A DNA stretch of 64,000 nt from Candidatus Woesearchaeota archaeon (GTDB taxonomy: Archaea; Nanobdellota; Nanobdellia; Woesearchaeales; UBA583). Both the position numbers and the translations under genes were made by a program. Positions 1,626-63,166 of the stretch are shown one piece after another (position 1 is the first letter of the stretch; each line of letters starts with the position of its first letter). The notes under the pieces were generated by a model. The model did not search any database, was not told where the DNA came from, and saw only the letters and a program-made list of their open reading frames with translations. The stretch lies in contig JAQICV010000092.1 in the NCBI GenBank assembly GCA_027858315.1, positions 334 through 64,333 on the forward strand, written 5' to 3'.

Positions 1626-1833
1626 CTTATCTGAATTAACAAAAATGAGCTATATAAATGTTTTTAATGTGTGATAAATAATAAATCATAGTTGAAAATA
1701 TTTTGAGGTAATTATTAATGAAGAAAAAAGAAGAATATTGTGATTTGAAACTTTATTGGACAAAGAGATTAGAAGATAGGGATTATTGATTTCCCACGAT
1801 ATATTTATAAATCCTTGTGCATATATATGCATT

Positions 1834-2130
1834 ATGGCGAGAGCTAAAAAATGTAAGATAGTTTTAGAAAATCCTAACTTTACTTACTTTAAACCTGTAG
1901 GAGTCCCAATGAAGGATTTAAATGAGATGATCTTAAATATAGAAGAGTTTGAGGCTTTAAGGTTAAAAGATTTAGAAAAGAAGGGTCAAATTGATTGTGC
2001 TAAGATAATGGGAGTTCATCAGAGTACTTTTCAAAGATTATTAATTAAGGCAAGAGAAAAAGTAACTTTTGCGTTAGTGAATGGTTCTGCCATAAGAATT
2101 GAGGGAGGAAATTATATTAAAGATGAATAA
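1834..2130 (+). CDS. DUF134 (UPF0251) family predicted DNA-binding protein
   Basis: FKPVGVP...EEFEALRLKDLEKKGQIDCAKIMGVHQSTFQRLLIKAREKV...GSAIRIEGG is the typical DUF134 HTH signature. Start placed at the internal ATG (MARAKK) rather than the ORF-track start at 1786. Confidence 0.8.
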   Translation: MARAKKCKIVLENPNFTYFKPVGVPMKDLNEMILNIEEFEALRLKDLEKKGQIDCAKIMGVHQSTFQRLLIKAREKVTFALVNGSAIRIEGGNYIKDE

Positions 2131-2563
2131 TAATACAGTAAAGAAGATTAAGAAAGTTTCAATTAAGAATTTTAAAGGTATTGTAAATTTATTACCTATT
2201 CTTTTAGGAGTTATTTTATTGATTAGTATAGTTAATTCATTAGTTCCTCAAGACTTTTATTCAAAGATTTTGACAGGAAATAGTTTTTATGATGTTTTGA
2301 TGCTTGATTTTTTTGGTTCAGTTCTTGCTGGAAATCCTATTACAGCTTATATGATTAGTGAGGAATTGATGAATAATTCAGTTTCTTTGTTTTTAATTAC
2401 AGCCTTTATTCTAGCATGGACAACTGTTGGAGTAGTTCAGTTTCCTGCAGAGAGTGTTTTAATGGGTAAAAAATTTGCTGTGACTAGAAATATTGTTGCA
2501 TTTGTTTTTGCAATTATAGTTTCATACCTTACTTTTTTAATTTATGAGGTGATTTTCTTATGA
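2123..2563 (+). CDS. Integral membrane protein, probable permease half
   Basis: Multi-TM hydrophobic profile. Its ATG overlaps the DUF134 gene end (8-nt overlap). It precedes a second similar membrane ORF. The function is inferred from context only. Confidence 0.55.
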   Translation: MNNNTVKKIKKVSIKNFKGIVNLLPILLGVILLISIVNSLVPQDFYSKILTGNSFYDVLMLDFFGSVLAGNPITAYMISEELMNNSVSLFLITAFILAWTTVGVVQFPAESVLMGKKFAVTRNIVAFVFAIIVSYLTFLIYEVIFL

Positions 2564-3060
2564 AACCAACAGAAAAATCCATGTTTGGATATTATTTTTT
2601 AGGATTTGTTTTGATTTTATATTTATTTTTTAGTATTTATAATTTTGAAATAATAGTTGTTTCTTTGAATTATTTCTTTAGTTTAATGAAAAATGTTTTA
2701 CCATTACTTTTATTTATCTATATTTTGATGGTTATTAGTGATTTTTATTTGACTGAAGAAAAAATAAAGAAACTTAGTAGTAAATTTAATGGTTTTAGAG
2801 GATGGATTTTAGCAATTATTAGTGGAATTATTTCATCTGGACCAATTTATATGTGGTATCCTTTTTTATCAAATTTAAAAAATAAAGGAGTAAGGACGGG
2901 ATTTTTAGTAGCTTTTTTATATAATAGAGCAATTAAAATTCCTTTGATTCCTGTTATGCTTATAGTATTTAATGTAAATTATATTCTTGTTTTATTTGTT
3001 GTTATGGTTTTAGCTTCAATAGTTCAAGGAAAAATTGTCGAGGTAATTTTAGAAAAATGA
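2560..3060 (+). CDS. Integral membrane protein, probable permease half
   Basis: Multi-TM protein. ATGA start/stop overlaps at both ends (2560-2563 and 3057-3060) indicate translational coupling. Confidence 0.55.
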   Translation: MKPTEKSMFGYYFLGFVLILYLFFSIYNFEIIVVSLNYFFSLMKNVLPLLLFIYILMVISDFYLTEEKIKKLSSKFNGFRGWILAIISGIISSGPIYMWYPFLSNLKNKGVRTGFLVAFLYNRAIKIPLIPVMLIVFNVNYILVLFVVMVLASIVQGKIVEVILEK

Positions 3061-3362
3061 AAATAGCAGTCGCGAGTGAATCAAAAGATGAAAATCTTGC
3101 AAAAGTTAGTCCTATTTCAGGAAGAGCATCATATTATTTAATTTATGATGATAAAGAGTTTGTTAAAGCAATTAAGAATCCATTTAAGATAGGTGGAGGA
3201 GGTGCTGGGCCAGCTGTTGCTCAAATGCTTACTAACGAAGGAGTTGAATTAATTATTTCTGGAAAATTGGGAGAGAAGATGATAGGGGTTCTTAATAGTA
3301 ATGGAATTAAATATCAAGTTTCAGAAGAAGTTTTGATTAAAGATTTAATTAGAGATTTATAA
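3057..3362 (+). CDS. NifB/NifX-like dinitrogenase FeMo-cofactor-binding domain protein
   Basis: MKIAVAS...GRASYYLIYDD...GGGGAGPAVAQMLTNEGVELIISGKLGEKM matches the small NifX/NifB-C-terminal family that commonly sits next to DUF134 genes. Confidence 0.75.
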   Translation: MKIAVASESKDENLAKVSPISGRASYYLIYDDKEFVKAIKNPFKIGGGGAGPAVAQMLTNEGVELIISGKLGEKMIGVLNSNGIKYQVSEEVLIKDLIRDL

Positions 3363-3412
3363 TTTTAATTTTAATTTTATTTTATTTTACTACTATTTTT
3401 TATTCTAAAATA

Positions 3413-3423
3413 TTATAAATATT
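3413..3423 (+). promoter_or_regulatory. TATA box (TTATAAATATT) of the DUF2341 gene
   Basis: A/T-rich TATA-like element 39 nt upstream of the ATG. Homologous to TTTTAAATATT at 34698-34708. Confidence 0.5.
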
Positions 3424-3430
3424 AATCACT

Positions 3431-3451
3431 AAATCGTACTTAGTACGATTT
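3431..3451. promoter_or_regulatory. Perfect palindrome AAATCGTAC-TTA-GTACGATTT abutting the ATG (candidate operator)
   Basis: 9-bp arms and a 3-nt spacer, ending 1 nt before the start codon at 3452. The same core recurs at 34717-34739. Confidence 0.7.
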
Positions 3452-6400
3452 ATGGTAAAAGAAAATAGTGCTCGGAAATTGAATTCAAAAACGAAGTTTT
3501 TGATTGGGTTGTTCTTAGTTTTTACTATTTTGTTTTTACCTTCTGTTTATAGTGCGGGAGAGCCTTGGTGGAATACTTCATTTGAATTTAGACAAGAGAT
3601 TAATATTTCTACATCTGCTGGTGCAACTCCTGCAAATTATCAGATAGAGTTAGATCTTGATAATACAAATGTTGGTGCTAATTTTAATTGGTCAAGGAGT
3701 TGTGAAGATTTAAGAGTTCTTGATAATCAAACTAAATTAGATTACTGGATTCAAAGTTGTAATTCGGTTAGTGAGCAGGCAACTATTTGGGTTAAGATGC
3801 CTTTGAGTTTTACAACTGCTCCAAAGACTCTTCATATTTATTATGGAAATTTGAATGTTAATAATGAGAGTAGTGGAGATGCTGTATTTGATTTCTTTGA
3901 TGATTTTAGTGGAGATTTGAGTAAATGGACTGAACATAAAAATCCAGATAAAATTTTTATTGTTGACAATTATTTACAAATTAGTGGAGCAACAACTTCT
4001 GCTCCTTATGGACACTCAGTAATTGGTTCTGATGCTACTTATTCTGGTTTCTTGAATGGAATTATTGATGGTGAACTATATCTTGATACTAATGCAATTG
4101 CGGAGATGGGTTTTAGAGGTAATTATGCTTCTAATACTGGATATAAATCAAGAGCTGATGCTAGACCTTCTGAGGGTGTTTCTCATTTAAAGCCTCCTTA
4201 TAACGGTTGGGGGTTTTTAGCAGGATGTTCTGCAACAGGTGGAGGTATTACCACTCATACTTGGCTTCCTTTTAGTATTACTGTTAATTCAAATACATTT
4301 AATATTGTAACTCAAGGTAAGTCTGTAACTTGTACAGATAATTCTTACAATACTGCAGGAGAAATTTCATTTCATAATCATTATGGTTTATATTCAAGAT
4401 TTGATAATATTAGAGTTAGAAAATATTTTGCATCAAATGTGAATATAGTTTATGGTGTTGAAGAATCTTTAGGTTTGTTAGATTTTAGTTTTTTAACACC
4501 ATCTTCTGTAGGTATTGGTTATATATTTAAAGATGATGTTTTTAATATTAGTATTGCTGTAAGTTGTAGGAAGAAAGCGTCCCCTTTTAATTGTGGAGAT
4601 ATAAATTTTAGTTTAAGATACAATGATACTTCTACAACATTTGAGAATATTTCTTTAAGTTCAACTACTCCTTTATGGATAACAAGTCCTGCTCAAAGTT
4701 ATTCTTTAGTTGATGATGAGACTCATATTATTTCATGGCTTCTAAATGGAAGTGGTAATGCTGGAGATTCATTTTTACTTGATGTGTTTGCTGTAAGTTC
4801 TGATGCTTTTACCTTTAATCAGAAATCTGCAGAAAATGGGCATGTGATAATTACAAATCAACCAATTGTTGCATTTAATCAGAGTATTTATGATTTTGGA
4901 AGTTTTTTTAAAAATTCTGGAAATAAATTGAAGACTTTGAGTATTTTGGCGGATTTAGGAATTAGCACAAATGTAACTGTTACGTGTGAGAGTGGAGACT
5001 GCTCAATGTTTAGTGATGATTGGGTTGATGGAACTGATATGAATGATGGTGATTCCTCTTTAATTGATTTTACTTGCTTTGAAAGTATTTCTGGAGATTT
5101 TAATGCAATATTTAGTGTGAGTTCTAATGAAAATCCTATGAAATCATTTGTAGATTTAAGTTGTAGTGTTGATAAAATTTATGGTCCTATTATGCCTCAT
5201 CTAATTATTCCTGTTGAGAATACTAGTATTAATGTTATGCAAAATGAAACTTTTAAAATAAATGCATCTGTTGATTGTGTTGGTAATTGTGGAGAAATTA
5301 CTGCTTTTGCTTTATATGATAGTTATGTTAATACTTGGAAAAATGTTCTATATCCATTTAAACAAAATATTACTTTGACTTCAGCAACTAGTATTAATTC
5401 GGGTTATCAAACTTTGTTAAGTTTTGATTCTTCAAATATTGGAATTAATTTTGATTGGTCAAATAATTGCGAAGATATTGCTTTTTATACAAATTATGAT
5501 GAACTCTCATTTTGGGTTGAATCTTGTAATGTTGTTGGAGAGGAAATGAAAGTATGGATTAAGACTAATAATCAAATTAATGTTTCAGGATATGATTTTA
5601 GAATGTATTATGGATATATTAATACTAGTAAAAGTAATGGTGAGAGTGTATTTAATTTCTTTGATGATTTTTTAGGTTCTAGCCTTAATCTAAGTAAATG
5701 GAATTTATTATATGACCAAGGATGGTCAGTTTCAGGTGGTGAACTTATTGGAACTAATACTAATGGAATTTTGCATTCTGTAAATTCTTTTTCAAATCCT
5801 GTAATTTTGGAAACTAAAACTAAAATGGTTACTAGAGCTGCAAATGGAATGATGAGTTTAGGTTTTTATTCTAGTGCAGGAGATGGAGTAGGTATTCAAG
5901 AGATAAATGTTGCTCCAGGTCAGTATTATTATAGAAATAATGGAGCTTGGAGCTCAGCTACTGCATTTGATAGTTTATATAATTATCACTATAATAAATT
6001 TTCAATAGATTCATCTAATAATGTTGTATTAACAATTGTGGATTTAATTGATGGAACTACAAGTACAAAGTCTTTTTCAAATACAGTGAATTTAGAAAAA
6101 ATAGCACTTGGTAGAAAATATGATAATGCTAATTTAAATCAAGCATATAATCAAAGATGGGATTGGATTAGAACTAGAATGTATAGTGCAATTGAACCTA
6201 CAATTTTAATTTCAAATGAAGATAAACTCAATATTATTTCAACCAATGTTTTAGATATACCTTTTTATACTTTTAATCTGCAGCCTCAAAGTTGTAATCC
6301 TATTGAGGATGGATCATGTTCTTTTGAATGGCTTGTTAATGTAACAGGATTAATCAATTCAAGTTATAATGTAAGTGTATTATTTTTGTCAAATTATTCT

Positions 6401-7045
6401 AATATATTAAGTGCAACATCAGGTTTTGCTCAAGTGAATATTGTAAATAATTTACCGCCTTTAGTTAATTTAATATCTCCGAATAATAATTCTAAAATTT
6501 TGATAAGTAATGATTTTATAGAACTTAAATATAATGTATCTTCTATTGATACAAATGTTTCTTGCGCTTTATTTGTTAATGGTATTTTTAATACAACTCA
6601 TAGTTGTAATGTGGGTGAGAATAATTTTAATTTATCTGTTAATAGAGGGGCTTATAATTGGTATATACAATCAAATAATTCTTTAGCAAGTACTGATTCT
6701 CAAGTTTTCAATTTTAATATAATAGAAGATTATGATTCAAGGATATCTAAAAAAATTTCAAATATTAATCTTGATTTGTATAAGTTAGAATTAAATATAG
6801 AAAATAGAATTAATAGTACAAATAATATTATTCCAATAGATTTTGTTGATAATAGGTTTAATTATGGTTCTTTTAGCACAACTTATGATTGGTTGAATTT
6901 AACAAATGGTTTATTGTATAATGGTTCAATATTGGGATGGGATTTGAATTTGATTCCTTTAGCTAATTTTAATATAAATTATTCTGTTACAAAAAATGTT
7001 GATGATTACTATTTACTTGATGAATTTATTATTGGATTAGAATAA
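3452..7045 (+). CDS. Giant secreted surface protein with two DUF2341 + concanavalin-A-like (LamG) modules
   Basis: Signal peptide LFLPSVYSAGEPWW. The DUF2341-like pattern (W..SF.FRQEI...NYQ..L.L...NV...F.W....C.DLR.......L.YWI..CN.....IWVK......YYG) occurs twice, each time followed by VF.FFDDF...L.KW (LamG-like). Many N-x-S/T sequons. Paralogue of 34740-38444. Confidence 0.8.
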   Translation: MVKENSARKLNSKTKFLIGLFLVFTILFLPSVYSAGEPWWNTSFEFRQEINISTSAGATPANYQIELDLDNTNVGANFNWSRSCEDLRVLDNQTKLDYWIQSCNSVSEQATIWVKMPLSFTTAPKTLHIYYGNLNVNNESSGDAVFDFFDDFSGDLSKWTEHKNPDKIFIVDNYLQISGATTSAPYGHSVIGSDATYSGFLNGIIDGELYLDTNAIAEMGFRGNYASNTGYKSRADARPSEGVSHLKPPYNGWGFLAGCSATGGGITTHTWLPFSITVNSNTFNIVTQGKSVTCTDNSYNTAGEISFHNHYGLYSRFDNIRVRKYFASNVNIVYGVEESLGLLDFSFLTPSSVGIGYIFKDDVFNISIAVSCRKKASPFNCGDINFSLRYNDTSTTFENISLSSTTPLWITSPAQSYSLVDDETHIISWLLNGSGNAGDSFLLDVFAVSSDAFTFNQKSAENGHVIITNQPIVAFNQSIYDFGSFFKNSGNKLKTLSILADLGISTNVTVTCESGDCSMFSDDWVDGTDMNDGDSSLIDFTCFESISGDFNAIFSVSSNENPMKSFVDLSCSVDKIYGPIMPHLIIPVENTSINVMQNETFKINASVDCVGNCGEITAFALYDSYVNTWKNVLYPFKQNITLTSATSINSGYQTLLSFDSSNIGINFDWSNNCEDIAFYTNYDELSFWVESCNVVGEEMKVWIKTNNQINVSGYDFRMYYGYINTSKSNGESVFNFFDDFLGSSLNLSKWNLLYDQGWSVSGGELIGTNTNGILHSVNSFSNPVILETKTKMVTRAANGMMSLGFYSSAGDGVGIQEINVAPGQYYYRNNGAWSSATAFDSLYNYHYNKFSIDSSNNVVLTIVDLIDGTTSTKSFSNTVNLEKIALGRKYDNANLNQAYNQRWDWIRTRMYSAIEPTILISNEDKLNIISTNVLDIPFYTFNLQPQSCNPIEDGSCSFEWLVNVTGLINSSYNVSVLFLSNYSNILSATSGFAQVNIVNNLPPLVNLISPNNNSKILISNDFIELKYNVSSIDTNVSCALFVNGIFNTTHSCNVGENNFNLSVNRGAYNWYIQSNNSLASTDSQVFNFNIIEDYDSRISKKISNINLDLYKLELNIENRINSTNNIIPIDFVDNRFNYGSFSTTYDWLNLTNGLLYNGSILGWDLNLIPLANFNINYSVTKNVDDYYLLDEFIIGLE

Positions 7046-11951: not shown

Positions 11952-12184
11952 TACCATTATTTTTATAAATTTTCACTGTCGTTCAAGTCACAAGTTGACT
12001 GCTTAAATAGCATCAAACTTATAAACCTCTATTAATTTTTTTTATTAGATCTTAAACTTATTTATGTTTGAGATTTATGAAACCAATTACTTAAATGACA
12101 AATGGTACAAAGTTAAATGCTTAGCATTGCTTTGTCTAAAAATTTCAGAAATGAAATTTGTCTATTTTTGTACATAGTAAAAAA

Positions 12185-12607
12185 ATGGTAGAAATCGATG
12201 AAAAACAAGCTTTTTTGATTATTCAAAAAGCAAAAGAAACTGGTTCAATTAGAATTGGTGTTAATGAAGTAACTAAAGCTGTAGAAAGAGGACAAGCAAA
12301 AGCAGTATTTGCTGCTAATGATGTTTCCCCTGCTGAAATTGTAGCTCACTTATCTGGTATCTGTACTGAGATGAAAGCAGTATTTGCTTCCCTTGGTTCA
12401 AAAGCTGAATTAGGTAGCGCAGTTGGTATTAAATCAACTACTGCTGTTGCAATTATCGATGCAGGTTCTGCAAAGAAAGATTTAGAAAAATTAACTGAAG
12501 AAAAAGCTGCTCTTGTTAAAGAAGCTGTTGTTGAAAAAGTTAAAGAAGAAGCTGCTCCTGTTAAAGAAGAAGTTAAGGAAGAAGCTGCTGTTGAGGAAGC
12601 TAAATAA
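12185..12607 (+). CDS. rpl7ae: 50S ribosomal protein L7Ae with an Ala/Glu/Lys-rich C-terminal tail
   Basis: GVNEVTKAVERGQAKAVFAANDVSPAEIVAHLSGICTEMKAVFASLGSKAELGSAVGI. Start set at the ATG (MVEIDEKQ); the ORF-track start at 12158 is a TTG. Confidence 0.9.
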   Translation: MVEIDEKQAFLIIQKAKETGSIRIGVNEVTKAVERGQAKAVFAANDVSPAEIVAHLSGICTEMKAVFASLGSKAELGSAVGIKSTTAVAIIDAGSAKKDLEKLTEEKAALVKEAVVEKVKEEAAPVKEEVKEEAAVEEAK

Positions 12608-12879: not shown

Positions 12880-13131
12880 ATGGTAGAATGTAGTTATTGT
12901 GGAACTGAGATTGCAAAAGGTACTGGAAAGATGTTTGTTAAAGATAATGGACAAATTTTGTATTTTTGTAAATCTAAATGTGAAAAAAATATGCTAAAAC
13001 TGAAAAGAGATTCTAGAAAGTTTAAGTGGACTAAATCTTTTGTTAAAGGAGCTGCTCCTAATGAAGCTGCACCTAAGAAAGAGAAAGTTGAAAAAGCTGC
13101 TGCTCCTAAAAAGGCAGAAGCAAAAAAATAA
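12880..13131 (+). CDS. rpl24e: 50S ribosomal protein L24e
   Basis: [51 protein letters not shown] (zinc-ribbon L24e). Third gene of the classic archaeal L7Ae-S28e-L24e operon. Confidence 0.9.
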
Positions 13132-13150
13132 ATTTCTTTTAGAAATTTAT
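13128..13150 (+). terminator. 10-bp-stem hairpin overlapping the L24e stop codon, followed by T-rich sequence
   Basis: ATAAATTTCT-TTT-AGAAATTTAT. A weaker copy follows at about 13154-13166. Confidence 0.4.
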
Positions 13151-13170: not shown

Positions 13171-13200
13171 AATGAAAAATAATTTGATTATTTTTTCATT
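13171..13200. terminator. 9-bp-stem hairpin between convergent genes
   Basis: AATGAAAAA-(12 nt)-TTTTTCATT, flanked by oligo-T/A runs and usable on either strand. Confidence 0.35.
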
Positions 13201-13465: not shown

Positions 13466-13555
13466 TTTATTATTTCCTAGATTTATTTATTTATAAATGA
13501 TTACTTTTTATAAGATAAAAAGATTTTATCCATTGATAATTTTAAGCATTGTGAA

Positions 13556-25012: not shown

Positions 25013-27868
25013 ATGAAATTAGGAAAAGTATTTTTGTGGCTTATTTTAATTGTTCTTTTTGCTGAGTCAGTTTTTTCTTATGGGTATTATGATTCAAAAG
25101 GTGAGTTTATGAATTTTGTTTCTAATCCTACGCCTACTATTGATATTAATGTTAGTTCAGGTAATTTGGAGCTTTATGTTAGAGATGGTTTTTTAGATTT
25201 TAATTCGAATGTTTCAACTTTTGTTATTGATGAGAATTTAGGTGTGTTTAGTGAAGGAATTTATAGTTTTGATGTTGTTGAAGTTATTACTGAGTTTGAT
25301 GATGTGAGCTTTGAATTAGAAGTGATTGATAGAGCTTCTGGGAAAAAAATAGTTCCTGAAGGAGACCCTATTGAGTTTAAAATTGTTTTAGATGAATTAA
25401 CTCCTGAACTTTTATCTTTTGAAGATTTGATTGTTGATTCTGAAAAAGTTGTTTTGGAGTTTTCTGAACCTGTGATGTTTGTTGATGTTTATATTAATGA
25501 GGATTTTTTTATGAGGTATAAAAATTTAGCGAATAATTTAAGGGTTAAGGATGAAAGATTTGTTGAAATCGATTTTCCTTTGAGTGCATTTGCTGGAGAG
25601 GCAAATAGTTTGAAGTTTGTTTTTCAAGATTTTGCTCAGAATTCTGCTGAAGAAGTAAGAGAAGTATATATTGAGTCTGAGCCTCTTAATGTTGAGCTTG
25701 TAACTCTTGCTACTAATGGTGAGCTTGAATATTTTTATAATCCTGCTCCTGAGTTTACTGCTCTTTTTGATGGGAAAATTTATTCTAAGAGTTCAGATTT
25801 TGAGTTGAAAATTAATACTAATAAACCTGCTGTGTGTTATTATTTAGATGGTGTTATTAATGAGAATTTAAGACTTGAAGATGCAATTTCTCCAGATGAA
25901 TTTACTTCTTCTGCAACTGGGTTGTCTCATTCTCTTCAAGTTACTAGTTTGATTGATGAGCTTTGGATTGTATGTCAAAATAAATTTTATGATTCTGAGA
26001 TTGTTTATTTGACTGATGCTTTAGGTATTGCTTCTTCAAGAGTTGTAGGTATTGAAGTTTATAATCAACCTGCAGTTGAGATTACTTATAGTGATCCTAA
26101 AACTTTAGTTACAAGTTTGCCTACAAGTTATATTCTTGAGACAAGTAGTCGAGCAGTTTGTTTTTCTGAGCTTGATTCTTATAGTGAGTTTTTACCTTAT
26201 CTTGAAGGTTTTTTAGTTCATCAAAACTCTGGAGTTGATATTAGTTTAGGGAGTCATAATTTAGATTTTGAATGTTATGATGTTTTAAATAATGTTGCAA
26301 GGGTTTCTAATTCTTTGGATGTTGATACTGATGCTGGAATTAAGGTTGTTGATTTTAATCCTAAATATACAATGGCTTCTAATGTTGAAGTTGATATTTC
26401 TCTTAGTGATGATGATGCAGATTGTAGATATTCTTTGAGCGATCTTGGAAAGAGGGCTTTTGATTCTATGAGTAATATTACACAGAGTGGTAGTAGAAAA
26501 AGTATTTCACTTACTTCTCTTAGTTCAGGAGATAATTTAGTTTATATTTATTGTAGTGATTCAAATCAAATTTATGGTCCTGAAAGATTGAATGTTATTT
26601 ATGATACTAAGGGAATTTCTCTTTCTAATTTTAAGTTTGAGAATGATGGTTATTTGAGTGATTTTTTATCAAGTGGTTCTGAGTTAGGATTTTCAGTTGA
26701 TATTAGTTCTATTATTCCAATTAAAGAGTATATTTTAGTTGTTGATTATGGTAATTATAAAGAGTATAATAGTTTGAATGGTGATGAGGATGAGACTAAT
26801 ATTTCAAGTTTTACTGGGAAAATTAATGGTGAATTTTTAGATGCTGCAAAAGTTATTTTGTATGCAGTTAATATGTTGGAGATTAATAAATCTGTTGAGA
26901 AAGATGTTAAGTTTGATATGACTCCGCCTTTTGTTACTTTTTCTAGTGTTGATGGTGGAAGAGCAATTGTTTGCGCTGATTCTGAGAGTGGATGCTCTAA
27001 AGTTTTTTATGGTTTTTCGCAGACTATTATTGATTGTTCTGCAAATCAACTCTACAATAGTTCTAGTTTGGAGGTTTTAGGTAATAATTATTTGTGTGCT
27101 AATGCATTTAATGGTGTTGGACTTGAAACTTTTGAGGTTGATGATTTGTCAGATTTTAATAGGGATGAAGATGAAGTAGATGAGTATAATGAGACTTTTG
27201 GTGGTGATGAAGAAACTCCAGTTGAAGAAGGTTTGGGAGATGAGGAAAATTTTGAAGAAACTTTTGAAGATCCTTTTGTTAGTTCAAATGATGGTTCAGG
27301 AGATTCAAATACGACAGGTATTGTTTTAGTTGGAGCTTTGGCTCTTATTCTTGTAGGAGTTTCAGGTGGAGGTTATTATGCTTATAAAAAAGGTTATTTG
27401 AATAAGGAACTTGAAAAACTTGGAATTAAGACTAAAGGTTCGACAAGTAATGGGAATGCTGGAGTTGGGGTTGCTTCTAAAAATAAGGATGATAAGTATA
27501 ATTTTACTTCAAAACCTATAAAATCAAAAGATAATGATAAGAATTTGAAGTCAAGCAAATATGATGATCATTTGAATAAATTGAATAAGTTTGTTGATTC
27601 AAAAGTTGGGAATTCTAAAGGTTTGTTTGACAAATTTAATGATTCTTCTAAGGGTAAGCATGAAAAATATGATGACACTTTAGTTAAGAAAAATAAAGGT
27701 GCAAAACTTACTAAAGAGGAGTATGATGAGTTTTATGAGAAGAATTCTTCTAAAGTTGGAGATGGTTCTGCTGTTTCAAAAGCTTCACTTAAAGATGAGG
27801 CTGATTCTTTTGAGAATTATTATAAGGAGAAAAAGGATAAGGAAAAGTCAGATTCTATTAAAAAATGA
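25013..27868 (+). CDS. Large surface protein with C-terminal TM anchor and Lys-rich cytoplasmic tail
   Basis: Signal peptide FLWLILIVLFAESVFS, about 730 aa of beta-rich ectodomain, an acidic linker, TM GIVLVGALALILVGVSGGGYYAY, then a 170-aa K/D/S-rich tail. Confidence 0.65.
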   Translation: MKLGKVFLWLILIVLFAESVFSYGYYDSKGEFMNFVSNPTPTIDINVSSGNLELYVRDGFLDFNSNVSTFVIDENLGVFSEGIYSFDVVEVITEFDDVSFELEVIDRASGKKIVPEGDPIEFKIVLDELTPELLSFEDLIVDSEKVVLEFSEPVMFVDVYINEDFFMRYKNLANNLRVKDERFVEIDFPLSAFAGEANSLKFVFQDFAQNSAEEVREVYIESEPLNVELVTLATNGELEYFYNPAPEFTALFDGKIYSKSSDFELKINTNKPAVCYYLDGVINENLRLEDAISPDEFTSSATGLSHSLQVTSLIDELWIVCQNKFYDSEIVYLTDALGIASSRVVGIEVYNQPAVEITYSDPKTLVTSLPTSYILETSSRAVCFSELDSYSEFLPYLEGFLVHQNSGVDISLGSHNLDFECYDVLNNVARVSNSLDVDTDAGIKVVDFNPKYTMASNVEVDISLSDDDADCRYSLSDLGKRAFDSMSNITQSGSRKSISLTSLSSGDNLVYIYCSDSNQIYGPERLNVIYDTKGISLSNFKFENDGYLSDFLSSGSELGFSVDISSIIPIKEYILVVDYGNYKEYNSLNGDEDETNISSFTGKINGEFLDAAKVILYAVNMLEINKSVEKDVKFDMTPPFVTFSSVDGGRAIVCADSESGCSKVFYGFSQTIIDCSANQLYNSSSLEVLGNNYLCANAFNGVGLETFEVDDLSDFNRDEDEVDEYNETFGGDEETPVEEGLGDEENFEETFEDPFVSSNDGSGDSNTTGIVLVGALALILVGVSGGGYYAYKKGYLNKELEKLGIKTKGSTSNGNAGVGVASKNKDDKYNFTSKPIKSKDNDKNLKSSKYDDHLNKLNKFVDSKVGNSKGLFDKFNDSSKGKHEKYDDTLVKKNKGAKLTKEEYDEFYEKNSSKVGDGSAVSKASLKDEADSFENYYKEKKDKEKSDSIKK

Positions 27869-34524: not shown

Positions 34525-34697
34525 TATACTATATTTCTCCTAAAATTAGGTTATAAATATTTGTTGTCAAAAAAAGTGGTAGTTGTTGTTTTTTGGTAAT
34601 TTATTGCTTAGTTAGTGATATTTTATTCTTAATTAATTTGAAAAAGAAATAATTCCTATATTTTTTTAAGTTTTCACTCCTTATTGTTTGGACAAAG

Positions 34698-34708
34698 TTT
34701 TAAATATT
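34698..34708 (+). promoter_or_regulatory. TATA box (TTTTAAATATT) of the second DUF2341 gene
   Basis: Matches 3413-3423 at 10/11 positions and lies 42 nt upstream of the ATG. Confidence 0.5.
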
Positions 34709-34716
34709 CTTTTTAT

Positions 34717-34739
34717 AAAGTCGTACTTAGTACGACTTT
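34717..34739. promoter_or_regulatory. Perfect palindrome AAAGTCGTAC-TTA-GTACGACTTT abutting the ATG (candidate operator)
   Basis: 10-bp arms and a 3-nt spacer, ending 1 nt before the start codon at 34740. Same core as 3431-3451, with one extra base pair (G...C) added symmetrically. Confidence 0.7.
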
Positions 34740-37700
34740 ATGGTAAACAAAAATGTACTGAGGACTTTGAATGTTTGGACGATGATTCTAGTGCTTAGTA
34801 TGTTTATTTTACCTTCGATTTATGGAATAAGTGCTGCGCCTTGGGCTGATGCTTCTGAACTTTATAGGCAAGAAATTAATATTACTGGAGCAAGTGTTTC
34901 AATTGATAATTTAACACATACTTTCGTTATAGATTCAAGTAATGTTGGTGCAAGTTTTGATTTTACAAATGATAGAGATTCAGTTAGATTTTATTATTTT
35001 AATTCAACCTCTAATGTTAGTTCTTTAATACCTCATTATGCTTCTACTTGGAGCGTTGTTGATTTGAATGCAACTTTAATGATTAAGGTTCCTTATTTGG
35101 ATGCAAGTTCTGATGCTAATTTATTTATGTATTATCATGATTCTACTAAGTCGAATTCGGAGAATTATTGTAGTGTATTTATTTATTGTGATGATTTTGC
35201 AGATGCTTCAATTGATTCTAGGTTGTCAACAGTTGATTTAGATACTGTTGCAGGAACTTCTTTTAGTGAGGGTTCAGGAGTCTTAACTGTTATTGCTGGT
35301 GGTTCAGATACTTGGACTGGGACAGATCATTATGGTTCTGTTTATTTGACAGGAGTGTCAGGGGATGTTGATGTAAGACTTGAAGTTACTTCACAAACAA
35401 ATCCTAATGTATGGGCTAAAGCTGGAATTATGTTAAAAAATGATATGACTGCTGCAGCATCTTCAACAGGATATTCTTTTAATGTTAGGACTCCTGGAAA
35501 TGGTTATTCATTTCAAAGAGATATGAATGATAATGGTTATTTGGATACGAATAATAATGGAGGTGCTCCTTCAGTTTCACCTTCTTATGTTAGATTAGTT
35601 AAAAGTGGAAATACACATACTGGTTATTATTCGAAAACTACACCTAATGCTTGGACTTTAATTACTAGTTCATCAATTACTTCAACAAATAATATTCAAG
35701 ATATAGGAATTTCACTTACTTCACATGCTGGTTCAACTTTATGTACAGCAACTTTTGATGATTTTACTGTTAGAAGATATTCAACAGACACTTTTTCAGA
35801 AATTTTTGGGAATGAGGATAAACTTACAAATTATTTGAGCTCAGTTGTTAATGATCCTTCTATTTTAGCAATTACTAATATGGTACAGAATAAAACTTTT
35901 GTTTTTAATAGCAGTGTTTCTTGTTTTGGGATTGATAATAATTCGGATTGTGGGAATGTTAGTGCAAATCTAAAGTATAATTCTTCGAGTGTCTTTAGTA
36001 GTGTTGCAACAAGTTCTTCAATTCCTGTTTGGTCTATTAGTTCTAATCCTCAAAGTTGTAATTTATTATATAATAGTTCTTGTACTTTTACTTGGACTGT
36101 TAATGCTACTGGTATAGTTGGTTCAATTCATAAGCTAAATGTTTTGTATTCAAGTAATGTTACTGATATATTGAATAAGACTTCTAAAAATGCATCAATT
36201 AAAATCATTAATGGTGATAGTGTGAATTTTAATCAGAGTTTCTATGATTTTTCATCATTTGATAAAAATAGTGGTGATAGAGAAATTACATTAGAAGTTA
36301 TTTCAGATAACGGTGATAATACAAATTTAGTGGTTTCTTGTGAGAGTGGAGATTGTTCTTTGATCTCAGATAATTGGTTAGATGGAATTAATTTGAATGA
36401 GGGTATTTCAAATAATATTGAGTTCACTTGTTCTGATTCGAGTTATGGTGATTATAGCGCAATTTTTAGTGTGACTTCTGATGAGTATGATGATAAATCT
36501 TTAATTAATGTTAGTTGTTTTGTTAATCCTATTTATGGTCCTATTAATGTTTATTTGACTAGTCCAACTCCATTAAGTACAAAGCTTGTTGGACAGAATA
36601 GAACATTTAGTTTTGATTCTTATTTTAATTGCACTGGACTTTGTGGCAATGTTAGTGCATATGCAGTTTATTCAAGTTCTAGTTGGTGGAATCCTGCTTG
36701 GTCATATAGACAGGAGTTGAATATTTCAATTTCGGATGCAATACCTTTAGGATATCAGATTTTATTGAATTTAACTTCGAGTACTATTGGAAGTAATTTT
36801 GATTGGTCGAATAATTGTAATGATGTAAGAATTTTGAATGGGAATACTGAATTAAATTATTGGATTGAGACTTGTAATTCAACAACTGAAAATTTATATG
36901 TTTGGATTGAGAGTGATTCTGCTTTTGCTTCTTCTTCAAATTATATTTTAGATTTGTATTATGGAAATTTTTGGGCGGTGTCAAATAGTAATGCTAGTTC
37001 AGTTTTTAGTTCTGATTTAATTCATTTAACTGCGGGTAGATGTCCTGCTTCTGATGGTGCTTGTAATTATTTGGATAATATTGTAGATGGTCAAACAATT
37101 AGAGCTAATATTGGGGCAATTAATTGGGATGTTGATGGAACTGGTTATGTTAGTACAATTAATAATCCTGATAATCCTTATTCGGGAATAGATGATAATT
37201 TTTATTTGAGATACAGAGCACTTTATATTCCTTCTGTAACTGGAACTTATTGGTTTGGAACTGCTTCCGATGATGGTTCTAATGCTGGATTGTGGAGTTA
37301 TGATGGTTATGGATATGGTTTGTCAACACCAACTTCTTTATCTAATCATGATATAGTAACTGATTGGTATGGTGCTCATGGAAGTGGAACTTGTGGAGCT
37401 ACAGCAGGAATTGAAAGGTCAAGGACTTTAAATGATGGTTTTGGTTATTGGATAGATTATGTTATGCAAGAAGTTAGTGGAGGTCAGGATTCTGAATTTT
37501 GTGTTGATTTGCCAGGAGGTGGAACTAATTATTTGAATTTTAATGATGTTAATTTTGGGGGTGATTTTTATGCAAGAACTTATGTTGAAAATGAACCATT
37601 ATTAGATGATGTTAGTTTAGAAGAGAGTCTGATTATTAGTACAGATTTATCAGAAACTCCTTTTTGGACAAGTTCATTTCAACCTCAAAGTTGTATCCCA

Positions 37701-38444
37701 ATTGAAGATGGAACTTGTCCTTTTTCATGGACAGTTAATGCTACAGGTGCTATAAATAGTTCTTGGAATATAAGTGTTTTTTATGTTTCTAATTTATCTA
37801 GTATCTTGCCTAATCAAACTCTATATACTACTATTAATATTACTGATAATATTGAACCAGTGATTACATTGTATAATCCATTAAATGTTACGAAAATATT
37901 AGGTAATGGGAGTGTAGAATTTTTATTTAAGGTTGATGATGATTCTAGTATTTTGAATTGTAGTTTTTATTTAGATGATGTTTTAAATCAATCTTTTAAT
38001 TGTAATAGTGGAACTAATTATTCACTTAATTTGTCTTTTTACCCAGGTAATTATGATTGGTATGTTAATGTAATTGATGAGATGTATAATTCAGTTAATT
38101 CTTCTAAGTATGAGTTTTGGATGATTTATAATCAGTCTGCTAGAGTATCAAAAAGTATTAGAAATATTAATACAAATATGTATTTTATAGAAGTAAATAT
38201 AAGTAATTCTCTTAGTGATTTTACTTCTCCAATTAGTGTAATGAATTATGTTGATTCAGATTTTTCTTCAGGTTCTTATAGTGTCATTTATGATTGGATT
38301 AATGTAACAATTGGATATTATGTAGGAGATATTTTAGGTTGGGATTTAATTGTCCCTCAATTAGTTTCTCGAGAAATTAATTACTCCGTTAGTGGGATTG
38401 ATGACTATTATTTGGGTAGAGAATTTATGGTTGGTTTAGATTAG
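34740..38444 (+). CDS. Giant secreted surface protein: DUF2341 + concanavalin-A-like (DUF1349/LamG_3-like) + DUF2341 + PA14-like modules
   Basis: Signal peptide FILPSIYGISAAPW. DUF2341-like pattern occurs twice (WSYRQELNIS...GYQILLNL...NFDWSNNCNDVRIL...LNYWIETCN...LYVWIE). GSDTWTGTDHYGSVYL...WAKAGIML...YVRLVKSGNTHTGYYS...ATFDDFTV is concanavalin-A-like. YLRYRALYIPSVTGTYWFGTASDDGSNAGLW is PA14-like. Confidence 0.8.
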   Translation: MVNKNVLRTLNVWTMILVLSMFILPSIYGISAAPWADASELYRQEINITGASVSIDNLTHTFVIDSSNVGASFDFTNDRDSVRFYYFNSTSNVSSLIPHYASTWSVVDLNATLMIKVPYLDASSDANLFMYYHDSTKSNSENYCSVFIYCDDFADASIDSRLSTVDLDTVAGTSFSEGSGVLTVIAGGSDTWTGTDHYGSVYLTGVSGDVDVRLEVTSQTNPNVWAKAGIMLKNDMTAAASSTGYSFNVRTPGNGYSFQRDMNDNGYLDTNNNGGAPSVSPSYVRLVKSGNTHTGYYSKTTPNAWTLITSSSITSTNNIQDIGISLTSHAGSTLCTATFDDFTVRRYSTDTFSEIFGNEDKLTNYLSSVVNDPSILAITNMVQNKTFVFNSSVSCFGIDNNSDCGNVSANLKYNSSSVFSSVATSSSIPVWSISSNPQSCNLLYNSSCTFTWTVNATGIVGSIHKLNVLYSSNVTDILNKTSKNASIKIINGDSVNFNQSFYDFSSFDKNSGDREITLEVISDNGDNTNLVVSCESGDCSLISDNWLDGINLNEGISNNIEFTCSDSSYGDYSAIFSVTSDEYDDKSLINVSCFVNPIYGPINVYLTSPTPLSTKLVGQNRTFSFDSYFNCTGLCGNVSAYAVYSSSSWWNPAWSYRQELNISISDAIPLGYQILLNLTSSTIGSNFDWSNNCNDVRILNGNTELNYWIETCNSTTENLYVWIESDSAFASSSNYILDLYYGNFWAVSNSNASSVFSSDLIHLTAGRCPASDGACNYLDNIVDGQTIRANIGAINWDVDGTGYVSTINNPDNPYSGIDDNFYLRYRALYIPSVTGTYWFGTASDDGSNAGLWSYDGYGYGLSTPTSLSNHDIVTDWYGAHGSGTCGATAGIERSRTLNDGFGYWIDYVMQEVSGGQDSEFCVDLPGGGTNYLNFNDVNFGGDFYARTYVENEPLLDDVSLEESLIISTDLSETPFWTSSFQPQSCIPIEDGTCPFSWTVNATGAINSSWNISVFYVSNLSSILPNQTLYTTINITDNIEPVITLYNPLNVTKILGNGSVEFLFKVDDDSSILNCSFYLDDVLNQSFNCNSGTNYSLNLSFYPGNYDWYVNVIDEMYNSVNSSKYEFWMIYNQSARVSKSIRNINTNMYFIEVNISNSLSDFTSPISVMNYVDSDFSSGSYSVIYDWINVTIGYYVGDILGWDLIVPQLVSREINYSVSGIDDYYLGREFMVGLD

Positions 38445-38523: not shown

Positions 38524-41500
38524 TTGTCAAAATTTAAGTTAGCCGGGGATTTTGGATTTTTAGTTTTTTTTATTTTATTCTTAGTTTCTTCTATGTTTGC
38601 TGTTACTTATTTGACTTCAGAAGATGTTTTTGATGCAAAAATTTCATATGTGAATGATCAGAAATTACCTTATTCTATTATTCTTCAGATTGATAATAAA
38701 GTTTATGATGAGATTGAATTTGATGTTGAGATTATTTTTAAGAAAGAGAATTTAGTTGTTGGTTCTAAGAGATTTGAGTGTTATGGAAGTTGTGAAGAGA
38801 AAATTAATTTGAATAAAATTTTCTTTGATGATTACTTAGTTGAGGTTGTTGCAGATTATAATGGTAGGAGATACAAGAAGGAATTAGAGTTTGTGTTGAA
38901 TGAACCTGAGGCATCTTTTAGCGTTAATCTGGATCCATACTATTATATTGATGAAGGAAAGTTGTTTGTTGATGGAATAATTTTTTCTTCGGTTCCTAAT
39001 ATTCATTATTATTTAGATATTTTTCCTAAGTTGTATCCGGAAGTTAAAGATAGTTTTGATTTTTTTTGTGAGGATTTAATGTGCGATTTTAATTTTAATT
39101 TAACTTCAGATATTTTTATTGGAGATTATTTGGTGAATGTTTATTCGGAGTTAGATTCTTCACAAGAATCTTTTTCCACTTTTTTAATGAATAAATCTGT
39201 TGATATGGAGAATAATAATCTTAATGATAGTAAGAATAATTTTGTTAGTGATGATGTTATTTATGTTGAAGAGAATCAAAAAGAGGTTGACATTTTTGGT
39301 TCTTTGGATTTGATTGATTCATCAAAGGTTGTTTTAGAGTATTATCCTACTCAACATAATGAGAAAAGGGTAAAACAGATGATTGAGTGTGATGATAAAT
39401 GTGATTTTGTTTTAAATATTAAAAAACCTATTATTTTTGGAGATTATCAATTGAATGTTTATTTGCCTAATGGTGTTTTCTCTGATTCTTTTAGAATTGA
39501 TCCTATACTGAATGGAGAGAATGGATCTTCAGATGATGTTTCTGGAGATAATTTGAATGAATATATTAATGATTACTTTGATGAAGAAGAGTTTTTATAT
39601 TTGGAATGTGAGGGTGAGGAGTGTGTTGATGATGTTAAAATTGATTATAATTATTTTTTAAATGATAATTTTGATATTGATATTAATTCTAATTTTGATG
39701 TTAATAATTTGGAATTTATAGATTTACCCGATAGTGTTAATTTGGGAGATGAATTTGATTTTTCAATTTTAGTTGAGGATGGTATTGATTATAATAAACT
39801 GAGATTTCCTAAGTCTATTCAGCTGAGAAAGTCAGATTTTATAGATAAGGGCTTGGAGATTTTAGCAACTAAATTTTCCGATACTAAAAATAGTTTAAAA
39901 TATACAGGAGTTGCAGATTCTGAAGATGGAGAGTTTAAGATTTATGATTCATATGGAAATTTGTATTCTCAGTTTGAATTGAAGGTTAATGTTTCTTCTG
40001 ATGTGAAGAGGTTTGAATCTAAAAATAAAATTGATATAGTATCAATTAAAAATTTGGATAATGGTAAAAAAGATTTAGAAGTTACTAAAAATAATGGTAG
40101 GGTTAATTTTAAAGATGTTAGTCTTGAAGATATTGAAGTAGTGGAAGTTATTGATGTTAAAAATTTAAATGAGAGAATTAATTTAGATATGGTTTCGGAT
40201 GTTGTTCATGTCGAGGCAGATAATTTTGAACAGGCTCAAATTTCTTTAGAGAAAGTTGAATTCGTGAAAAATATTTTAGTTTGTAATGAATTTATTAATG
40301 AACAATGTATCTCTGGTTGGGAAGATTCGAATTTGATTTTTAGTCAAAATAATTCTCATGTCGAATTTAATGTAACTCATTTTAGTGCATATGTTGCAGA
40401 GGGTTCTTCTTATTCTTTTAATGTTGATTTCCAAGATTATTCTGATGTTTTGATATCTCAAGGTGGTTCAGATGTTATTAGTTTGAATGTTAGTTGTATT
40501 AGTGGTGATTGTGGGTTAATTGATGTTGGTTTGTATATGACTACTGGTTTTACTGGTTATGATTTTTATGAGGTTACTGGAAATAAGTATAATGAATTTT
40601 CTTGTAGTCAGAATCCTACTTTAGGTATTGATGATGGGATTAATGTTTATAATTTAGGGTTTGAGTTTCCTTTTTATAGTCAAGTTATTGGTTCTGTTGA
40701 TTCAGTTTATTTTGATACTAATGGAAGATTGTCTTTTGATGATAGTGCTTCAGATTATAACCCTACTGTAGCAGAGATGATAGCGGATGAGAATATTGCA
40801 TTTTTGTGGGCAGATTTGGGAGATGGGACTTATAATAATGAATATGCTTGTTTGGATCAAGGTGTAAATAAGAAGTATTCAGTTTTTAGAGTTGATTCTC
40901 AGTGGTATAATGGAGCAGGGGTTGCTCAGTCTGAGGTTGTTTTGTATAATAATGGTAATGTGAAAATTAATCATGGGACTGTTATTCCTAGAAGTGGTGG
41001 GTTCTATGGACTTAGTGCAGGAGATAATTCTAATTATGATTATTTTGCAACTGATGCTTCTGATTATTCAGATAAATCATATATGTTTTATTATAATAAA
41101 GGTAGTTTAGTTTCTACAATTCCTGCTACTTCTCCTTTCTGGACTGGTGCTTCTCAGACTCAACAAGTGAATTTGGCGGCAGGTGAGTCTATTATTGTAT
41201 CTTTTGATTTGAATGCAGTTGGTGCTGTTAATTTATATGAACTTTATGGAGTTGCTATTTCGAATTCAGATAATTCTCTTCGTTCACAGAGTGATGATTT
41301 AAATGTTTTCATATCAGATAATAATCCTCCTATTCTTAATCTGATTACTCCTATTGATGGGTATGTTGGTTCTTCAATTGAAAATATTATTTCTTTTGAT
41401 GCAAGTTTTACTGATGATACGTCTTTACTTGAGTCTGAGATTTTTGTATGGGATAATTTAGGGAATTTAATTTATAATGTCTCTGATAGTTTATCTGGTG

Positions 41501-47152: not shown

Positions 47153-47239
47153 ATTTATTTTTTTAATAATTATGAGAATTTTACTTTTTAACTCATCACA
47201 AATAAAATTTGTGACATTTTAATTCATTAATTGTTAATT

Positions 47240-62970: not shown

Positions 62971-63071
62971 TTATTATCTTTCTTTATTAATTTTATGTTT
63001 AAAGAAGTAGAGTTAAATTTATAATAATGTAAATTTTGTTTATGTTAAATAGTTTTAGAAAAATATGTTAA

Positions 63072-63113: not shown

Positions 63114-63166
63114 CAGGGACCGGAGAGAGGGGATATGGAGAAGGGAGAGGATTTAAGCGAAACTGT

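Follow-up and report, generated by a model that had tools for sequence, protein, structure and literature searches.

A palindrome at the start codon of giant DUF2341 adhesin-like genes, a candidate control element of low-GC archaea of the DPANN type

The DNA analysed here, called the window throughout, is a 64-kb stretch (64,000 nt) from a Candidatus Woesearchaeota archaeon (assembly GCA_027858315.1, contig JAQICV010000092.1, positions 334 to 64,333 of the forward strand). It has a GC content of 25-31%, carries no tRNA genes, and encodes an archaeal housekeeping set that includes a tRNA-intron endonuclease, L7Ae, S28e, L24e, an archaeal CCA-adding enzyme, SMC and Rad50. Two genes on its plus strand encode giant surface proteins with two DUF2341 domains each. 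Gene 1 (3452..7045) specifies a secreted, adhesin-like protein of 1197 aa, and gene 2 (34740..38444) its paralogue of 1234 aa, which also has a weak PA14 match; the two proteins are full-length paralogues with 31% identity. Each gene is preceded by a palindrome that runs into its start codon. Judging from the sequence comparisons described below, this palindrome of 23-27 bp is a real, dedicated control element of giant adhesin-like genes in low-GC archaea of the Nanoarchaeia/DPANN type.

Copy 1 of the palindrome, TAAATCGTAC-TTA-GTACGATTTA, occupies 3430..3452 on the plus strand, with arms of 10 bp, a loop at 3440-3442 and a last base that is the A of the gene 1 ATG. Without its flanks it reads AAATCGTAC-TTA-GTACGATTT at 3431-3451, and the ATG starts at 3452. 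A preliminary description of this DNA had noted a perfect palindrome at 3431-3451, which is real, and had left a gap of 1 nt before the ATG, which is not, since the ATG at 3452 abuts the palindrome. The same description had the core recurring before the paralogous gene at 34740, and copy 2 does lie directly 5' of that ATG. It reads ATAAAGTCGTAC-TTA-GTACGACTTTAT at 34715..34741 on the plus strand, with arms of 12 bp, a loop at 34727-34729 and last two bases that are the AT of the ATG; without flanks it is AAAGTCGTAC-TTA-GTACGACTTT at 34717-34739, followed directly by the ATG at 34740. Relative to copy 1, copy 2 has one additional G:C pair, inserted symmetrically in both arms. When the 64 kb were searched for the core TCGTACNNNGTACGA (TCGTAC-N3-GTACGA, with up to two mismatches), these two copies were the only sites found; the expectation from shuffled sequence is 0.15, and none of 100 shuffles gave two matches. 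At the low identity of the two proteins, a 15-mer that is identical in both window promoters is not residual similarity from the duplication. Copy 1 is predicted to fold into a hairpin of -7.3 kcal/mol as DNA (z -6.6) and of -11.8 kcal/mol as RNA (z -4.1), and copy 2 into hairpins of -10.2 kcal/mol (DNA) and -15.2 kcal/mol (RNA). As DNA the two strands fold alike, with -7.3/-7.6 kcal/mol for copy 1, -10.2/-10.1 kcal/mol for copy 2, and z from -6.6 to -8.8.

Homologues were gathered by protein searches followed by contig retrieval; a query for exact matches of the window protein in public assemblies gave no record. The resulting sample consists of 17 distinct promoters, namely the two window copies and those of 15 further independent homologous genes (966-1843 aa) whose start lies within the retrieved DNA; handles beginning with L denote the retrieved loci. 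The nearest homologues lie on contigs labelled Nanoarchaeota, Nanoarchaeia, Woesearchaeota or Nanobdellota, and the homologous proteins are ~30-65% identical. The element is deeply conserved in this set. All 15 further homologues carry the palindrome, and its 3' end falls in the interval from 2 nt before the A of the ATG to 3 nt past it. The arms are at least 7 bp long in 17 of 17 copies, and perfect arms of at least 10 bp are present in 14 of 17; in L026a the arms have decayed at the outer end, leaving 7 bp. The copies include TAAATCGTAC-TTA-GTACGATTTA in L001, TATTATTATAC-ATA-GTATAATAATA in L002, TTAAATTGTAC-TTA-GTACAATTTAA in L003b, AGTAGTGTAC-TTA-GTACACTACT in L009, ATTGTTGTAC-ATA-GTACAACAAT in L010b, TAAGGTGTAC-ATT-GTACACCTTA in L024 and TAAATCATAC-TTA-GTATGATTTA in L027. 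In L003a (CATAAACGTAC-ATA-GTACGTTTATG) the entire ATG is paired (CAT/ATG), and in L008 (AAATTGTTC-TTA-GAACAATTT) the core itself has co-varied (GTTC/GAAC). Several genomes have two or three copies of the gene, often in tandem (L003, L010, L026), with one palindrome per copy, and the promoter flanks of such paralogues are not homogenised. A 15-mer core peculiar to each genome would fit the window and L010a/b and fails for L003a/b and for L008/L013, which belong to one metagenome-assembled genome (MAG); the idea was not used as evidence. Among the MAGs with the element are GCA_964384165.1, GCA_036142795.1 and GCA_964351975.1, and L003 derives from sample SRR17229348.

The element is also specific to this family. 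A scan of ~234 kb of related DNA for the core with arms, a check that had been proposed in the preliminary description, gave sites before DUF2341 homologues and nowhere else. A covariance model built from the 17 sites scored copy 1 at 41.6 bits and copy 2 at 40.4 bits and retrieved no further members from 268 kb, the next match standing at 20.9 bits (E 0.22). As both the core and the covariance model find family sites only, the element is dedicated to the DUF2341 gene family. No palindrome is present before the distant, higher-GC homologues L022 and L030, which have Shine-Dalgarno leaders. A metagenome scan with protein alignment yielded two loci only, and a scan of viral contigs yielded none. 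Some of the low-GC contigs in the set (L002/L007/L010/L011/L024 and L008/L013) were deposited as parts of 'Methanosarcinales archaeon' and 'Bdellovibrionales bacterium' MAGs. The contigs deposited under those two names have archaeal leaderless promoters and genes of the DPANN type, and their naming is probably a matter of mis-binning or mislabelling.

The stem co-varies around a fixed apex. The apex, (G/A)TAC-WTA-GTA(C/T), hardly changes from copy to copy among the 17: pair 1 (C-G), pair 3 (T-A) and the middle T of the loop never change, and pair 2 and the A at the third loop position are nearly always kept. In the stem alignment (A2), 97.1% of the 170 cells hold a standard pair, 164 of the 170 are strictly Watson-Crick, and a single one is G·T (G·U as RNA). 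Changes on both sides were seen in 8 of the 10 pairs, with 36 doubly changed cells. The covariation score was 0.60 as against 0.20 in shuffles, none of which reached it in 500 trials, and sliding the 3' partner by 1-3 columns lowered the pairing to 26-41%. Past ~10 bp the pairing ends abruptly, pairs 11-14 being formed in 25% of cells, which is the level of chance. Folding of the alignment with RNAalifold recovered the palindrome helix and no other, and an Rfam 15 scan of the whole window gave 0 matches at the gathering threshold. Arms that co-vary in this way bear the mark of an ability to form hairpins that is maintained by selection or by a mutational process. An intrinsic terminator was considered and rejected: every copy stands 5' of its gene, with 0-2 nt between it and the ATG, and nothing more than TTT-ATG comes after it.

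The position of the palindrome is best understood against the ordinary promoters of these genomes. At most window genes a TATA of the TTTATAAA or TTTATATA type begins 27-34 nt before the ATG, and no Shine-Dalgarno sequence is present, which together imply leaderless mRNAs at most window genes. For example, the gene at 10021 has TTTATATA at -29, and further TATA boxes stand at -30, -33 and -34. The statement that TTTATAAA is found exactly 29 nt before the ATG of four genes had to be reduced to two (55449 and 58721). Taken together over the related loci, ordinary genes show a sharp peak at 29 nt in the spacing between a strict TATA 8-mer and the ATG, with 27-30 nt the commonest values.

For the palindromic promoters of the window, comparison with the leaderless promoters of the same genomes points to a putative B recognition element (BRE) and TATA upstream of each copy. 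At copy 1 these would be a BRE-like A-run (3407-3410) and the TATA TTATAAAT (3413-3420), beginning 27 nt before the loop. At copy 2 they would be a BRE-like ACAAAG (34692-34697) and the TATA TTTTAAAT (34698-34705), beginning 29 nt before the loop, both promoters reading on the plus strand; the CAAAG+TATA layout of copy 2 matches that of the promoter of the gene at 10021. The distance of 39-42 nt between these TATA elements and the ATG, which the preliminary description had explained by the extra length of the palindrome, is correct, but that account had missed a proximal TTTATAAA box at copy 2 (34712..34719, plus strand), which stands 28 nt before the ATG, overlaps the left arm and is a possible alternative leaderless promoter; the length of the palindrome thus explains the spacing only in part.

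TATA and palindrome stand at a fixed distance from each other. With the 17 promoters aligned on the loop, an A-run (-32 to -29) precedes TTTAAA (-26 to -21), whose A at position -23 is shared by 16 of the 17 copies, the same layout as in the ordinary promoters of these genomes; a strict TATA match begins 26-29 nt before the loop in 7 copies. In L003b, L013, L027 and L024 the palindrome lies 2-3 nt further from the ATG and the TATA is displaced likewise, so the TATA is tied to the palindrome and not to the ATG. Five promoters (L024, L009, L015, L003b and window copy 2) have no other TATA-like stretch between the palindrome and an upstream box described below. Neither the stretch from -39 to -36 nor the DNA 5' of the upstream box holds a TATA that is conserved among the 17 promoters, and in several copies the spacer that follows the upstream box is too GC-rich to hold one. 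A TATA that begins 26-29 nt before the loop, taken together with the 29 nt of the leaderless genes, places the start within the loop (positions 1-3) or on the G with which the right arm opens. We thus consider it probable that transcription starts inside the palindrome, as had been predicted earlier, given that the TATA keeps a constant distance to the palindrome centre and that ordinary genes peak at 29 nt. With such a start, the left arm is predicted to remain untranscribed.

Two further boxes accompany the palindrome. An upstream box with the consensus TTTTCACTAC(Y) is recognisable in 16 of the 17 promoters; it precedes the loop by ~46-56 nt and the BRE by ~13-20 nt, and in the window it reads TTTTACTACT at copy 1 (3385..3394) and TTTTCACTCC at copy 2 (34671..34680), both on the plus strand. 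The motif is not enriched across the window (8 matches, with 13.6 expected), and its position suggests an activator site. Downstream, within the coding sequence, lies what we call the D box, a GTAC-like AGTGCT at copy 1 (3467..3472) and TGTACT, a third GTAC, at copy 2 (34754..34759), both on the plus strand and 25 nt after the GTAC of the right arm. The D box is present in 8 of the 17 copies (both in the window, L001, L013, L024, L026a/b and L027), 24-25 nt downstream of the right-arm GTAC. Between -100 and +120 nt of the loop, GTAC occurs in the 17 promoters at offsets -4, +3 and +27/28 only, plus one stray at -64. The D box is read in two frames (Val-Leu in one, Ser/Cys-Thr in the other) and is fixed to the palindrome, not to the ATG. 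In L027, where the arms are CATAC/GTATG, the D box is CATACT and so co-varies with the arms. The two frames and this co-variation point to a constraint that would act at the nucleotide level within the first 10 codons. A GGAAT(AGAAT) motif at offset 33-36 likewise stands in two frames. The D box could be an auxiliary half-site, or a pairing partner of the mRNA 5' end; in folding of transcripts that start at the loop, pairing of the right arm with the D box was weak and no better than in shuffles (z +0.9 and +1.2). A larger RNA structure that would extend from the upstream box through the palindrome to the D box was rejected, RNAalifold giving the palindrome helix only.

We rate the element as an archaeal control site that overlaps the predicted start site and has an unusual, stem-loop-like evolutionary signature, for which it deserves to be a target of experiments. 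As to how it works, we lean tentatively, at somewhat less than an even chance, towards an operator that acts at the DNA level, is centred on the start site and gates initiation. The palindrome would then be a dedicated cis-regulatory element within the core promoter of the DUF2341 adhesin-like gene family. The BRE/TATA, ~27 nt upstream of the palindrome centre, would direct RNA polymerase to begin either with the A of the loop or with the G that opens the right arm. Of the two arms, the left would span about -12 to -3, the first region to melt, and the right would form a leader of 9-12 nt that lacks a Shine-Dalgarno sequence and runs into the AUG. A factor would read the invariant apex, a 4-3-4 dyad, and by sitting over the start site would block the recruitment of RNA polymerase or promoter opening, as TrmB/TrmBL1, Phr and MDR1 do. 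The position of the start site, the existence of such a protein and the repressive direction of its action are what we infer from this arrangement; the element may also be an on/off switch for the adhesin-like family, as proposed in the preliminary description. The window copies have the dyad symmetry of start-site operators, with perfect arms of 10-12 bp. The near-absence of G·U (1 in 170 pairs) fits a constraint at the DNA level and would be unusual for an RNA stem. The earlier preference for the operator of a dimeric regulator over an mRNA hairpin is thus upheld in part: the promoter geometry and the scarcity of G·U favour the DNA level, but only the 4-bp apex is conserved, and the outer arms co-vary.

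A number of observations weigh against such an operator. Operators for proteins are as a rule dyads of imperfect symmetry whose half-sites are conserved, rather than perfect ones of free sequence. Here the half-sites are conserved in sequence only over the 4 bp of the apex and the T in the middle of the loop, while pairs 5-10 vary. These pairs are Watson-Crick in 97 of 102 cases within copies, as against 52% when arms are combined between copies, and none of 20,000 permutations was as high; the complementarity is therefore specific to each copy and does not stem from a common AAA/TTT consensus. Even between paralogues of one genome pairs 5-10 differ with the complementarity kept. The double compensatory changes in 8 of the 10 pairs, the symmetric insertion that separates the two window copies and the co-variation of the L008 core belong with them. 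An operator leaves the complementarity of the outer 6 bp of each arm unexplained unless an assumption is added, which could be either a site read in its hairpin or cruciform form, or template switching that corrects palindromes and so keeps the arms identical. A single regulator would have to tolerate both of the cores that differ between L008 and L013 within one MAG, and a search of conserved neighbourhoods for a regulator returned two small membrane proteins that recur and no transcription factor. The start site is a prediction from promoter geometry. A proximal TATA that would give a leaderless mRNA is present in ~6 of the 17 copies, window copy 2 included. A position weight matrix built from 13 ordinary promoters proved too weak in such AT-rich DNA, its best-scoring positions being scattered and the TATA at -27 not singled out, though positions -26 to -29 are among the top four in 13 of the 17 copies.

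A rival mechanism would act through RNA. In that case the palindrome would be a hairpin in transcripts that begin upstream of the left arm, serving as a translational operator or 5' stem-loop that masks the first 0-3 nt of the AUG. Such transcripts would come from a promoter tied to the TTTTCACTAC box or from read-through in the tandem arrays, and a hairpin-binding protein, melting of the stem or processing at its base would set translation or mRNA stability. We regard this as unlikely, while recognising that a stem whose top and loop stay invariant, whose lower part co-varies freely and which stops sharply is the classical pattern of a protein-bound RNA hairpin. Compensatory change is found to the extent that an RNA stem would call for (97.1% paired, 8 of 10 pairs doubly changed), RNAalifold recovers this helix only, and the 3' end of the stem always falls at -2 to +3 of the A of the AUG, L003a pairing the full CAT/ATG. 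The lone non-Watson-Crick pair is a G·U on the sense strand (L026b), intermediate between CGTAC/GTACG and the CATAC/GTATG of L027. The hairpins are stable as RNA (-11.8 and -15.2 kcal/mol, z ~-4), and pairing is possible between the right arm and the D box, which shows co-variation or wobble with that arm in L027, window copy 1 and L026b; this suggests alternative pairings. The promoter geometry, however, speaks against such a transcript. The sole conserved BRE/TATA, 27 nt before the loop, would put the start inside the palindrome, and the main mRNA should then not contain the complete hairpin; there is no conserved TATA at -39 to -36 or above the upstream box, and the intergenic region of L024 is without any other TATA-like sequence. 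Tolerance of G·U is confined to 1 of 170 pairs, where typical RNA stems are expected to hold far more, and no Rfam family matches. These genomes translate mainly leaderless mRNAs, and the leader in question would lack a Shine-Dalgarno sequence.

The same features could also reflect structure in the DNA itself, a hairpin or cruciform at the start site in place of a classical operator, which we hold to be rather unlikely. Extrusion driven by supercoiling might block or enable initiation, or the non-template strand might fold once the transcription bubble spans -12 to ~+11 and so tune escape or re-initiation; the apex may be kept as initiator and first transcribed bases, or may be read by a structure-specific protein. 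Structure of this kind would account together for the predicted central start, for strict Watson-Crick pairing in both strands with free sequence, and for the abrupt arm length of ~10 bp. That length equals the melted region on the left (~-12 to -3) and, on the right, the ~10 nt made before escape, dimensions that are those of archaeal and Pol II initiation, and both strands fold equally well. On the other hand, arms of 10 bp are short for spontaneous cruciform extrusion, a GC-containing CGTAC in the melted region would hinder opening, the D box and the upstream box go unexplained, and we know of no precedent in archaeal transcription for control by a DNA hairpin or cruciform. That the palindrome is read as a folded structure at the promoter, be it a non-template hairpin or a start-centred cruciform, with the apex and triloop recognised in folded form, is in our judgement improbable. 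If so read, it would mean that a multisubunit archaeal RNA polymerase is controlled through structure, at initiation or at escape from the promoter, specifically for the adhesin genes of DPANN archaea. If function were confined to the apex, as an initiator or short operator, the outer arms could be the neutral by-product of template-switch correction or of recent promoter duplication. The invariance of the apex and the lack of sequence information in the outer arms agree with this, as does the right arm being bounded by the ATG while the left arm sometimes copies CAT/AT, which fits templating from the constrained side. At ~30-65% protein identity, though, neutral non-coding sequence should be scrambled, and yet 14 of 17 copies keep perfect arms of at least 10 bp; the decay of the L026a arms shows that perfection is not automatic, and the unhomogenised flanks of the paralogues argue against gene conversion. 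We consider a function of the apex only very improbable, and neutral arms or some other explanation, taken jointly, quite improbable.

For the favoured operator, neither the conserved neighbourhoods nor the HTH proteins of the window and the other loci yielded a regulator. The preliminary description had named a DUF134 protein (1834-2130) as the only helix-turn-helix (HTH) candidate of the window, and it is indeed the sole protein there with a Pfam-detectable HTH. Two of the retrieved loci encode regulator-like proteins. In L003, 18504-19217 on the minus strand specifies a protein of 237 aa in which two transmembrane segments, the first of them possibly a signal segment, flank an extracytoplasmic domain, and which ends in a MarR/TrmB-like winged helix; it lies ~5 kb from the tandem DUF2341 genes and looks like a membrane-anchored one-component regulator, and the same locus encodes a second winged HTH protein. 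In L026, the gene of a NikR-like ribbon-helix-helix regulator (2453-2839) immediately precedes the DUF2341 gene L026a and has a divergent ZnuA/ABC (Zn) transporter as its neighbour. As candidate regulators of the palindrome, the winged HTH proteins of L003 and the NikR-like protein of L026 were rejected, because no homologue of them is encoded near other copies or in the window. The half-sites of E. coli NikR, GTATGA/TCATAC, match the arm variants of L026b and L027, with the opposite arrangement and a different spacing, a likeness that we take to be probably a coincidence.

The DUF134 gene is part of a group upstream of gene 1 (1786-3362) that also comprises two overlapping reading frames and a NifX/NifB-like Nitro_FeMo-Co protein; the overlapping frames, 2099-2563 and 2560-3060, match the N-terminal and C-terminal halves of an ArsP-type permease, respectively. 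This DUF134/ArsP/Nitro_FeMo-Co cluster is not linked to DUF2341 genes at the other loci. Directly downstream of gene 2, 38524-46848 encodes a 2774-aa protein with MAM and Ig-like domains, and a protein of 951 aa without a Pfam match is encoded at 25013-27868; both of these large proteins have ordinary TATA promoters, and the palindrome is absent from them. An archaeal phage integrase or XerA-type gene (63065-63985) stands at the end of the window. Giant DUF2341 proteins have been proposed to be PilY1-like pilus-tip adhesins in archaeal type IV pilus loci, and a Methanococcus screen for transformation defects hit a DUF2341-domain gene among the epd pilus genes (PMC4858521, PMC10133366). Downstream of their DUF2341 genes, L003 and L006 encode two small membrane proteins and a prepilin peptidase.

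The window holds other inverted repeats as well. The best covariance-model match outside the family, the one at 20.9 bits mentioned above, is a near-palindrome, TTTTTGTAC-ATA-GTAAAAAA, at 12162-12189, directly 5' of an ATGGTA that is the probable real start of the L7Ae gene; the listed L7Ae reading frame begins instead with the TTG at 12158. One pair of this near-palindrome is mismatched, its TATA is spaced differently, and it is probably due to chance. A palindrome with 8-bp arms, TCAAAAAC-GAA-GTTTTTGA, lies at 3485-3503 in the region of gene 1 that encodes the signal peptide, 33 nt past the ATG. Perfect inverted repeats of 8-10 bp with 3-nt loops are found in intergenic positions at the 3' ends of genes (13128-13150, 13175-13195, 13504-13522 and 47196-47214). 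For example, ATAAATTTCT-TTT-AGAAATTTAT overlaps the stop codon of the L24e gene, whose reading frame ends at 13131. These repeats may act as 3'-end hairpins. Among palindromic tetramers, GATC (60 observed, 158 expected), CATG (67 and 133) and ACGT (7 and 18) are strongly depleted in the window, and GTAC, TCGA and AGCT are not; the depletion suggests pressure from restriction-modification on these tetramers, and for GATC and ACGT it was seen in L002 and L010 too. A role of the palindrome as a GTAC target of restriction-modification or methylation was rejected, because GTAC is not avoided (81 occurrences as against 94 expected in the window, with similar figures at other loci).

Almost nothing is known of gene regulation in the DPANN/Nanoarchaeia, which are uncultured or episymbiotic and have tiny genomes, and their giant surface proteins are prime candidates for host attachment. 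The element is a mark of adhesin-type surface genes in this host-dependent archaeal clade. It marks adhesin promoters and offers a bait for the regulator, in the form of a 23-27-mer to be presented as a duplex, a DNA hairpin or an RNA hairpin. It also poses a puzzle, in that a palindrome centred on the start evolves like a stem-loop though half of it is predicted to be untranscribed. If a structure-based explanation were true, it would amount to a new mode of initiation control in archaeal (Pol II-like) transcription; if the operator explanation is right, this clade would have its first defined cis element of the regulon type.

Known hairpins share some, and only some, of these features. The coat-protein operator of MS2/R17 and the 5' stabiliser stem-loops of the ompA type have a conserved apex, a co-varying lower stem and a stem at the start codon, as does the element described here. 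Those hairpins are fully transcribed and tolerate G·U, whereas here only the right arm is predicted to be in the mRNA and G·U is nearly absent. The promoters of the phage N4 virion RNA polymerase, with a stem of 5-7 bp, a 3-nt loop and a fixed position in the promoter, are read in extruded form, and the likeness lies in the short perfect repeat. N4 uses a single-subunit phage polymerase together with the single-stranded DNA-binding protein of its host, so that this is an analogy only, and to our knowledge nothing comparable to the N4 hairpin promoters has been described for archaeal RNA polymerase.

Closer parallels in position are found among archaeal regulators that bind at the promoter. TrmB, TrmBL1 and Tgr of the Thermococcales (motif TGM, TATCAC-N5-GTGATA) use an inverted repeat at or downstream of the BRE/TATA and over the start site, where the palindrome is predicted to lie too. 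In archaea, palindromic sites that follow the BRE/TATA and cover the start site bring about repression by keeping RNA polymerase from being recruited; the TrmB site is TACT-N3-AGTA, and a second promoter under TrmB control has a lone half-site at the start site (PMC4158304). The TrmB site and the apex of the palindrome share the same 4-3-4 bp geometry, and the lone TrmB half-site recalls the D box. The half-sites themselves differ, however, being TACT/AGTA for TrmB and GTAC/GTAC here, and the palindrome can be read as TACT..AGTA only with a 1-bp spacer and only in the copies with a TTA loop. TrmB sites, moreover, are not perfect palindromes of 10 bp with co-varying outer arms. TrmB regulates sugar metabolism, whereas the regulon here would be a single adhesin family, and no TrmB-family protein was detected in the window. 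Phr of Pyrococcus and MDR1 of Archaeoglobus, in the work cited in PMC4158304, bind palindromes over the start site and exclude RNA polymerase after TBP/TFB have bound. Their operators have the geometry predicted here, but have sequence-conserved half-sites, no evidence of structure-type covariation and known cognate proteins, whereas no cognate factor was found for the palindrome. Regulators of the EarA/ArnR type are dedicated to archaeal type IV pilus-like surface genes, and the likeness lies in this dedication, in the TACATA of some palindromes and in the proposed pilus-tip role of DUF2341 proteins, with prepilin-peptidase genes beside the L003 and L006 copies. EarA boxes (TACATA) stand upstream of the BRE, 9-11 bp away, and are activating (PMC10665913). 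In our set TACATA occurs in the ATA-loop variants only (G-TACATA-GTAC; 6 of the 17 copies, none of them in the window), and there it lies at the predicted start site, which is not where an EarA box belongs. If anything, the upstream TTTTCACTAC box is a better positional analogue of such an activator site than TACATA is.

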